A stretch of 64,000 bases of DNA, from NCBI GenBank assembly GCA_965649765.1, contig OZ287755.1, forward strand, positions 31,558,001-31,622,000, read 5' to 3'. Both the position numbers and the translations under genes were made by a program. Below are positions 11,141 through 11,597 of this stretch, piece after piece. This DNA is from Bispira polyomma. Lineage: Eukaryota. Under the pieces are notes generated by a model. That model saw only the letters and a program-made list of their open reading frames with translations, made no database searches and was not told the origin of the DNA. Every line of letters starts with the position of its first letter. The stretch's first letter is position 1.

Positions 11141-11597
11141 ATGGAACAACCAGACGTAACAGATTCAGTTGTTGGCGAGGGGTTATTCTGTAATTCTGTC
11201 AAAGGAGGTTTTTCACTTTGTACACCAGCTGCTTCTTCTCCTTCTTCTAAACCTTGCAGTGGAAAAGCTACCAGAGGATCTTCTATATATTTAGGAGGTC
11301 GAACAGACGCAAACCCAGGATTTTCCTTTTGGAAAGACGAAATTCTTTTACAAGTACGACAACACAATAGAAACTTGTAAGACCTGGCCTAAATCTCACC
11401 CGCTTCAACCTGAACAACTAGCTAAAGCTGGATTTATTTACACAGGAACAGGAGACAGCTGTAAATGTGCCTGGTGTAAGGTTGTTTTACATCAATGGGA
11501 TTCTTTTGAAGATGTCTTTTTTGAACATAAAAGACACACAAAAGGAAATTGTGCTTTTGTTCAGTACTTATTTCCATCCGAGCCTCCACGTTTTTAA
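11141..11597 (+). pseudogene. Single-BIR inhibitor-of-apoptosis (IAP)-like protein, frameshifted
   Basis: After a 1-nt frameshift in the T-run at 11327-11330 the frame reads KTWPKSHPLQPEQLAKAGFYYTGTGDSCKCAWCKVVLHQWDSFEDVFFEHKRHTKGNCAFV (C-x2-C-x16-H-x7-C); stop at 11595-11597. Confidence 0.9.

Follow-up and report, generated by a model that had tools for sequence, protein, structure and literature searches.

A gene for a protein with a single BIR domain and no RING is a genuine, conserved accessory gene of a family of Polinton/Maverick elements in the genome of Bispira polyomma. The copy that we analyzed, at 11,141-11,597 (+) of the window (the whole stretch of 64,000 nucleotides under study), is the first gene of its element and is likely to be a frameshifted, probably dead pseudogene. 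By pairwise sequence comparison, the gene is under purifying selection close to that on core viral genes. The protein probably serves, although with considerable room for other readings, as a sink or decoy for host IAP-binding N-termini rather than as a direct caspase blocker.

The BIR gene and its Polinton element

The element is a decayed endogenous Polinton/Maverick of the adintovirus type that occupies 10,357-32,053 (21,697 bp) and carries the core genes. Its ends read AGTAGT...ACTACT and are flanked by a 6-bp target-site duplication, the right copy of which (32,054-32,059) perfectly matches the left one (10,351-10,356), and its terminal inverted repeats, at 10,357-10,670 (+) and 31,750-32,053 (-), are 97% identical over 304 aligned bases. 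Terminal inverted repeats, (AGT)2 ends and a 6-bp target duplication are the Polinton hallmarks given in the available part of the literature (PMC8097293). Window positions 1-10,356 and 32,054-32,700 are duplicated, with approximately 90-95% identity, at 37,900-47,300 and 48,800-50,200, and within these duplicated copies of the flank, empty insertion sites are found at 46,639-46,644 and 49,592-49,597. Because the other copies of the host segment keep the empty site, the Polinton insertion is younger than the segment duplication.

Downstream of the BIR gene, the plus strand encodes a PC4-like protein (11,612-12,130), the almost invariant neighbor of the BIR gene that is present in 74 of 76 loci. 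All 9 of its homologs compared with PF02229 match at E <=0.1, 4 of them at or above the cut-off; the window copy itself yields no PF02229 match, and the PC4 profile has no match in the PDB. The subsequent genes encode an A32/FtsK-like packaging ATPase (12,442-13,073, +) that has a Walker A motif and is frameshifted near 12,565 by a break private to the window copy (two sister ATPases match Pox_A32 with E of 1e-4 and 0.01, both below the cut-off); a retroviral-type integrase (13,760-14,773, +; Pfam rve, E 2e-8, above the cut-off); and two small proteins without a family match (14,887-15,647, +) which, from gene order and composition, we take to be the minor capsid protein and a basic pX-like protein. 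The double jelly-roll major capsid protein (15,644-16,894, +), broken by a stop, was recognized through a fold search with the model of a natural sister, a low-confidence model (pLDDT 56) that matches the capsids of SGIV, PBCV-1, Sputnik and mavirus, with the best E of 6e-8. It is followed by a partial frame of an adenain-like protease (17,035-17,367, +), with all 3 sister proteases matching Peptidase_C5 weakly and below the cut-off (E 0.003-0.04), and by the putative opposed polymerase (17,605-22,563, -), which shows exonuclease and polymerase motifs. Here, five motifs that we take to be those of protein-primed family-B polymerases appear in order over the broken frames, and neither these frames nor those of the sisters have a Pfam polymerase match. 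A NADAR-like domain (E 6e-7) lies at the polymerase C-terminus, 17,605-18,336 (-), and in the sister L048 is in frame with the polymerase motifs. Sequence searches of PHROGs, NCBIfam and the PDB gave no name to the capsid, protease or polymerase. The right arm contains further frames at 22,837-23,502, 26,454-26,852, 27,796-28,041, 28,330-28,743 and 29,454-29,699, possibly secreted or membrane proteins with Cys-rich starts, one of which is PC4-like by eye and lacks a Pfam match.

Elsewhere in the window, LINE-type reverse transcriptase fragments are present at 56,885-58,449 (-; RVT_1, E 3e-8), as is a decayed retroelement at 58,555-63,056 (+) whose frames are gag-like, reverse transcriptase, RNase H-like and recombinase-like and include RVT_1 and RVT_3 matches, which we take to be of the DIRS/Ngaro type.

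The coding sequence of the BIR gene runs from the ATG at 11,141 to the stop at 11,595-11,597 and is spread over two frames, one of 79 codons that starts at this ATG and the other at 11,295-11,597. Both the 66 codons at the 5' end and the 84 at the 3' end correspond to one and the same natural sister protein (61 of 66 residues, or 92%, and 80 of 84 residues, or 95%, respectively), so that the two halves make up a single gene whose frame breaks near 11,340; the sisters have continuous frames of 147-160 aa. The earlier note had described a 1-nt insertion and placed it in the T-run at 11,327-11,330, a location that is ruled out by pairwise alignment to 29 sisters, in which the 13 with 90% identity or more all put the break at 11,339-11,340, about 10 bases beyond the run. 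The BIR gene of the window has 3 private substitutions compared with the 7 closest sisters, and the degradation of the BIR start motif described in the same note is borne out as a change of two residues that occurs in the window copy only.

The broken ATPase, capsid and polymerase frames, together with 17 private substitutions in 2.2 kb of the window copy (versus 7 close sisters), indicate that the element as a whole has decayed. These features are also relevant to the alternative that an assembly error produced the break near 11,340 and the copy is open. In contigs from three public DNA runs, the sequence across the break site is always unbroken, in line with such an error, but contigs of this kind collapse repeats and drop rare variants, and the 17 private substitutions, the second private break in the ATPase and the stop in the capsid gene make the error improbable.

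The BIR domain (11,370-11,564, +) is of type II, with one extra residue before the last Cys in the alignment to cIAP1 BIR3. In a Pfam search, the downstream frame matches PF00653 with E 3.3e-16 and 60 bits, where the cut-off is 22.9 and the sister proteins reach 69-80 bits; the match spans positions 3-70 of the 70 in the model, which vindicates the initial perception of a full BIR signature. All four zinc ligands are in place in the pattern C-x2-C-x16-H-x6-8-C, and the type II pair consists of E preceding the zinc His and H three residues beyond it. The frame stops about 9 residues past the BIR, in agreement with the claimed absence of a RING; the window gene thus lacks the C-terminal RING that is the criterion for a ligase of the baculovirus or cIAP type, and none of the Polinton-linked BIR frames at the 170 loci examined contains a RING-like pattern. 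Ahead of the domain is an N-terminal arm of about 66 aa (11,141-11,338, +) that is predicted to be disordered (pLDDT <50 in a sister model) and contains repeated GLF / GF-x-[FL] motifs.

Placement, spread and origin of the BIR gene

Across the subfamilies, the recurring gene order is BIR, PC4-like, ATPase, small genes, integrase, capsid module, protease and opposed polymerase. In 39 of 43 loci, which represent 12 subfamilies, the shared upstream sequence stops at AGTAGT; in all 43, this upstream end is 610-1,219 bases ahead of the BIR domain, and in 38, no frame of at least 90 residues intervenes. This conserved terminal placement makes the position as the first gene, which the earlier note had claimed for the window copy and which holds there (no frame of at least 60 aa between the element end at 10,357 and 11,122), a trait of the family. 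Position by itself, that is, the fixed place beside the terminal repeat, suggests early expression.

Other arrangements coexist with this one. A two-BIR, RING-less protein of approximately 190-245 aa is encoded after the protease (L140-L144, L150-L157, L159, L161-L166, L169, L170), a tandem pair of different single-BIR genes precedes the PC4-like gene (L084-L086, L100, L103, L105, L106), and in further Polinton families, a BIR gene faces the capsid module. Seven loci (L113, L114, L118, L123, L128, L137, L139), some of which follow an AGTAGT end, combine the BIR and PC4-like genes, with core genes absent within about 6 kb, and represent either a more distant Polinton group or non-autonomous derivatives. 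In the first 150 kb of G000 contigs C3, C8, C11, C13 and C15, near-identical copies of one subfamily are located near the contig starts.

When the genome (1.04 Gb) was searched for BIR sequences, 150 of 529 candidates were scored, and 106 loci were sampled from these (the top 30, then one in four, one in two and all loci of three lower identity bands). Polinton core genes adjoin 104 of these, and the other 2 adjoin the PC4-like gene only. A Pfam search of the genome, with 150 of 537 candidates scored, included 72 loci, picked by eye, that were absent from the first list, and of the 64 that were retrieved, 32 have core genes, 7 have the PC4-like gene only and 25 have neither. Three of the last 25 fall inside the Polinton group in the tree, one more is similar by eye, and the remaining 21 are of the host type, with multiple BIRs, with RINGs or with an exon structure. 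About 149 of the 170 examined BIR loci are of the Polinton type in this genome, a proportion in which the host genes are under-counted because BIRs split by introns score lower.

Conversely, an integrase search, in which 150 matches were scored of 990 candidates, shows that a BIR gene lies near 119 of the 122 matches that are at least 55% identical (109 from the lists, and 10 of 13 others on retrieval), so that the absence from other family members that the earlier note had envisaged as counter-evidence is not what we find. Among the integrase matches below 55% identity, a BIR is nearby in 17 of 28 and none is present in a one-sided 10-kb stretch for the other 11. A continuous start-to-stop frame is retained in 21 of the 29 closest sisters and 37 of 76 others (58 of 105 overall). 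No relatives of the BIR protein or the capsid were detected in viral contigs, and 14 metagenome loci with BIR matches of just 31-38% and without Polinton genes were set aside.

By simple pairwise counting, with non-independent pairs and open frames chosen, 11 of 12 comparisons of the BIR domain across subfamilies yield a dN/dS of 0.04-0.29 (the remaining one is saturated), against 0.04-0.15 for the ATPase, integrase and capsid and 0.19-0.96 for the N-terminal arm.

A single-sequence search of a set of 5.8 billion found no match. A 12-sequence profile search retrieved 30 proteins, mostly ENA sequences that share this build, including several clusters with many members on megabase contigs. Sequences from other assemblies are interspersed among the Polinton BIRs. 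A quick 95-row tree unites all 24 Polinton rows with 3 relics and 8 outside relatives in a single group (SH-aLRT 86) that contains no host row; a host-type fragment from Mytilus coruscus (P0185) falls outside the Polinton group in this tree and was discarded as a candidate. A careful 51-row tree and FastTree each recover two Polinton groups, and a single Polinton clade is compatible with the data (p-AU 0.455), whereas joining the window's group to nine host second-BIR rows is rejected (p-AU 0.003, with the group named after viewing the trees). Support in the trees, which rest on 81 alignment columns and contain no survivin/BRUCE or herpesvirus rows, is weak.

These results do not sustain capture from the host in the form in which it was first proposed: the Polinton BIRs form their own group, the host second-BIR joining is rejected, and no donor was found. 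A cellular origin is likely, but given this grouping apart from the host IAPs, any capture should be ancient, and recent capture from the sampled host genes appears unlikely. In its extreme version, recent capture would make the gene a host fragment or retrocopy carried as a neutral passenger. The gene is intronless and BIR domains are, as is generally known, cellular in origin, both of which fit such a scenario, but it is rendered highly improbable, and we reject it, by the purifying selection on the BIR, the same position in 12 subfamilies with BIRs down to about 45-50% identical, the relatives in other assemblies and the rejection of the host second-BIR grouping. More likely, the BIR would have entered the Polinton lineage long ago, from a cellular or viral IAP that can no longer be named, and would then have duplicated and moved within the elements.

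The groove, the arm and the putative function

Type II BIRs are defined by E or Q before the zinc His and W or H three residues after it (PMC8917759, section 7). The window copy belongs to this type, as do 101 of the 139 full BIR motifs from Polintons and 17 of the 18 outside relatives; after the removal of near-duplicates, 21 of 29 motifs do, and 15 of 29 keep all four groove residues. Compared with cIAP1 BIR3, the groove wall has I, V, T, Q or K in place of Gly, an aromatic residue specific to the family is present and a loop is longer by one residue, so the ligand might not be that of cIAP1 BIR3. The best solved relatives are NAIP, cIAP1 BIR3 and the XIAP domains, far above survivin (E ~1e-8 versus 1e-12 for cIAP1 BIR3), and the solved-structure matches include the complex of cIAP1 BIR3 with histone H3 (7trl). 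The structure model of the natural sister is weak (pLDDT 54.5, pTM 0.36), and its fold matches, with Z up to 6.7, are insufficient to separate type I from type II. Survivin-like IAPs consist of a single long BIR followed by a long C-terminal helix; a survivin/Deterin-like identity was considered and rejected because of the short tail of 5-13 residues after the BIR, the weaker survivin score and the absence of the C-terminal helix.

The N-terminal arm varies in length and sequence among the family members. With a pattern chosen after viewing the sequences, GLF / GF-x-[FL] / FxFG motifs number 51 in 29 arms versus 1.7 in shuffles, and their density per 100 residues is 2.5 in the arms versus 0.02 in cellular IAP linkers; they occur in 25 of the 29 arms, relatives from other assemblies included. 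We take these motifs to resemble nucleoporin FG repeats.

Conservation of the type II groove lends plausibility to an anti-death role, and the combination of a kept groove, no RING, a tail of 5-13 residues and a variable arm makes a decoy likelier than caspase blocking. In intact elements, the single-BIR, RING-less protein of about 150 residues would bind host proteins with exposed IAP-binding N-termini, either IAP antagonists of the Smac/Reaper type or processed caspase ends. Such a decoy would spare the host's own BIR-RING IAPs, without itself inhibiting or degrading caspases, and the host cell would stay alive while the element replicates. Against this proposal weigh the altered groove wall, the limited number of motifs (15 of 29) with all four groove residues, the retention of a continuous frame in no more than 58 of 105 sister loci, and the need of most known anti-apoptotic baculovirus IAPs for their RING. 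As described in the available part of a relevant paper, type II grooves bind the IAP-binding motifs (IBM) that antagonists and processed caspases carry, cIAPs leave the caspases that they bind uninhibited, and a suggested action of viral IAPs is to neutralize IBM-bearing antagonists (PMC3972657), which makes the statement of the earlier note that BIR proteins block caspases too general.

Direct inhibition of caspases in the manner of the XIAP linker-BIR2, with the arm blocking the active site, would be consistent with the BIR2-like E/H groove pair, with the flexible arm ahead of the domain, which recalls the XIAP linker, and with the accessible report that an oyster IAP BIR binds a caspase (PMC7831173). 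However, the arm is weakly constrained, at the dN/dS given above, and variable, and the cIAPs demonstrate that caspase binding need not entail inhibition (PMC3972657, in part), so we consider this mechanism quite improbable.

A role outside apoptosis is a more serious, if still doubtful, contender. The groove might read another free N-terminus, for example, that of a histone tail or a signaling protein, or compete with host IAPs in innate-immune signaling, and the FG-like arm might bring complexes of the element into the nucleus or onto chromatin. The single BIR without a RING, the changed groove wall, the 7trl match, the tight linkage to the gene for a PC4-like DNA-binding protein and the excess of arm motifs over shuffles all point in this direction. 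The lower score of survivin relative to the cIAP, XIAP and NAIP domains and the lack of a survivin-like C-terminal helix speak against it, as do the IAPs of many invertebrate DNA viruses and the Bcl2 homologs of adintoviruses, which suggest a shared anti-death need. The decoy for IAP-binding N-termini remains the reading that we favor.

Molluscan IAP expansions and known systems

The Polinton gene bears on the published expansion of IAPs in bivalves. In the accessible part of Song et al. 2021, 42 intronless single-BIR genes of hard-clam clade 1 are ascribed to a burst of retroposition, most of these genes are silent, DNA transposons are enriched around IAPs, and the BIR+PC4 combination (type G3) is called a novelty of clams and mussels that arose by domain shuffling (PMC7831173). 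Among 28 of the 49 rows of the clade 1 table, 22 are single-exon genes of 348-456 bases, 11 of them exactly 408, mostly unexpressed, and 3 are expressed multi-exon genes of other types, a possible host parent that argues against a viral reading (PMC7831173). Maverick is the largest class of DNA transposons listed for the hard clam, at 1.7-1.9% of the genome, in the part of that report available (PMC8905726), and the words Polinton and Maverick are absent from the main text of Song et al. 2021, the oyster paper and the 2026 survey of metazoan IAPs.

The intronless clade 1 IAPs of type G1 and the BIR+PC4 IAPs of type G3 of hard clam and mussels resemble the Polinton gene in being single-exon, one-BIR, dispersed and mostly silent, with DNA transposons nearby and with the BIR beside PC4, a likeness by description to genes published as host retrocopies and a domain-shuffling novelty (PMC7831173, in part). 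By this analogy, we consider it reasonably probable that viral genes account for a considerable share of the published molluscan IAP expansion, with the single-BIR genes and the BIR+PC4 'G3' type being Polinton genes or gene models that fuse two neighboring Polinton genes. A search for PC4-like fusion proteins of 418-2000 residues, a range that does not include a BIR+PC4 fusion of about 320 residues, found none. If the match holds, IAP counts that serve as an argument for stress adaptation have to be corrected. The Polintons would in that case maintain an old and diversifying family of RING-less IAP decoys of their own, which would be more numerous than the host BIR loci in some genomes and might be a source of genes for domestication by the host. 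According to the available text, Polinton virions are unobserved in most animals (PMC8097293); a host-manipulation gene that is selected nearly as strongly as the capsid and integrase genes speaks for a stage of life during which the death of the host cell is of consequence.

An IAP gene in a Polinton-type element is of an already reported kind. In the part of the adintovirus study available, Starrett et al. 2021 observed homologs of Bcl2 and IAP, the latter in a one-line mention, within elements of the same type as the one described here, and in the text of Supplementary Fig. S2, the label 'IAP' appears next to the maps of the Mytilus mussel and the Pinctada oyster (PMC8502044); the figure legend of a 2026 leafhopper preprint, seen in excerpt, also includes IAP. 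The present analysis adds the lineage-wide presence, the fixed terminal position, the BIR-PC4 pairing, the selection and the type II groove, as well as the occurrence of one-BIR, two-BIR and tandem forms, which occupy three positions within the elements. Our search of the literature, the scope of which excludes most subscription papers, found no paper devoted to Polinton BIR genes or tying them to molluscan IAP counts.

Mobility of an IAP module is not confined to Polintons: going by the accessible description, the Burro giant retrotransposons of planarians are likewise mobile elements with such a module, but unlike the Polinton BIR gene, theirs is a BIR with a RING inside the polyprotein of an LTR retroelement. 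The IAPs of baculoviruses, entomopoxviruses, iridoviruses, nudiviruses and malacoherpesviruses share with the Polinton protein the BIR fold in an invertebrate DNA virus, and such IAPs are the best viral fold matches (IIV-6 193R, E 1.5e-4), with 17-44% identity to the ten best. Most of these viral IAPs combine one or more BIRs with a RING, whereas the window family has one BIR, no RING and a long, predicted disordered arm. The domain also resembles the type II BIRs of cIAP1 (BIR3), XIAP (BIR2) and NAIP, with about 40% identity and shared zinc ligands, Trp and acidic groove residues, from which the Polinton family differs in the stand-alone domain, the replaced groove-wall Gly and the C-x-W-C signature that is found in 128 of 139 motifs.
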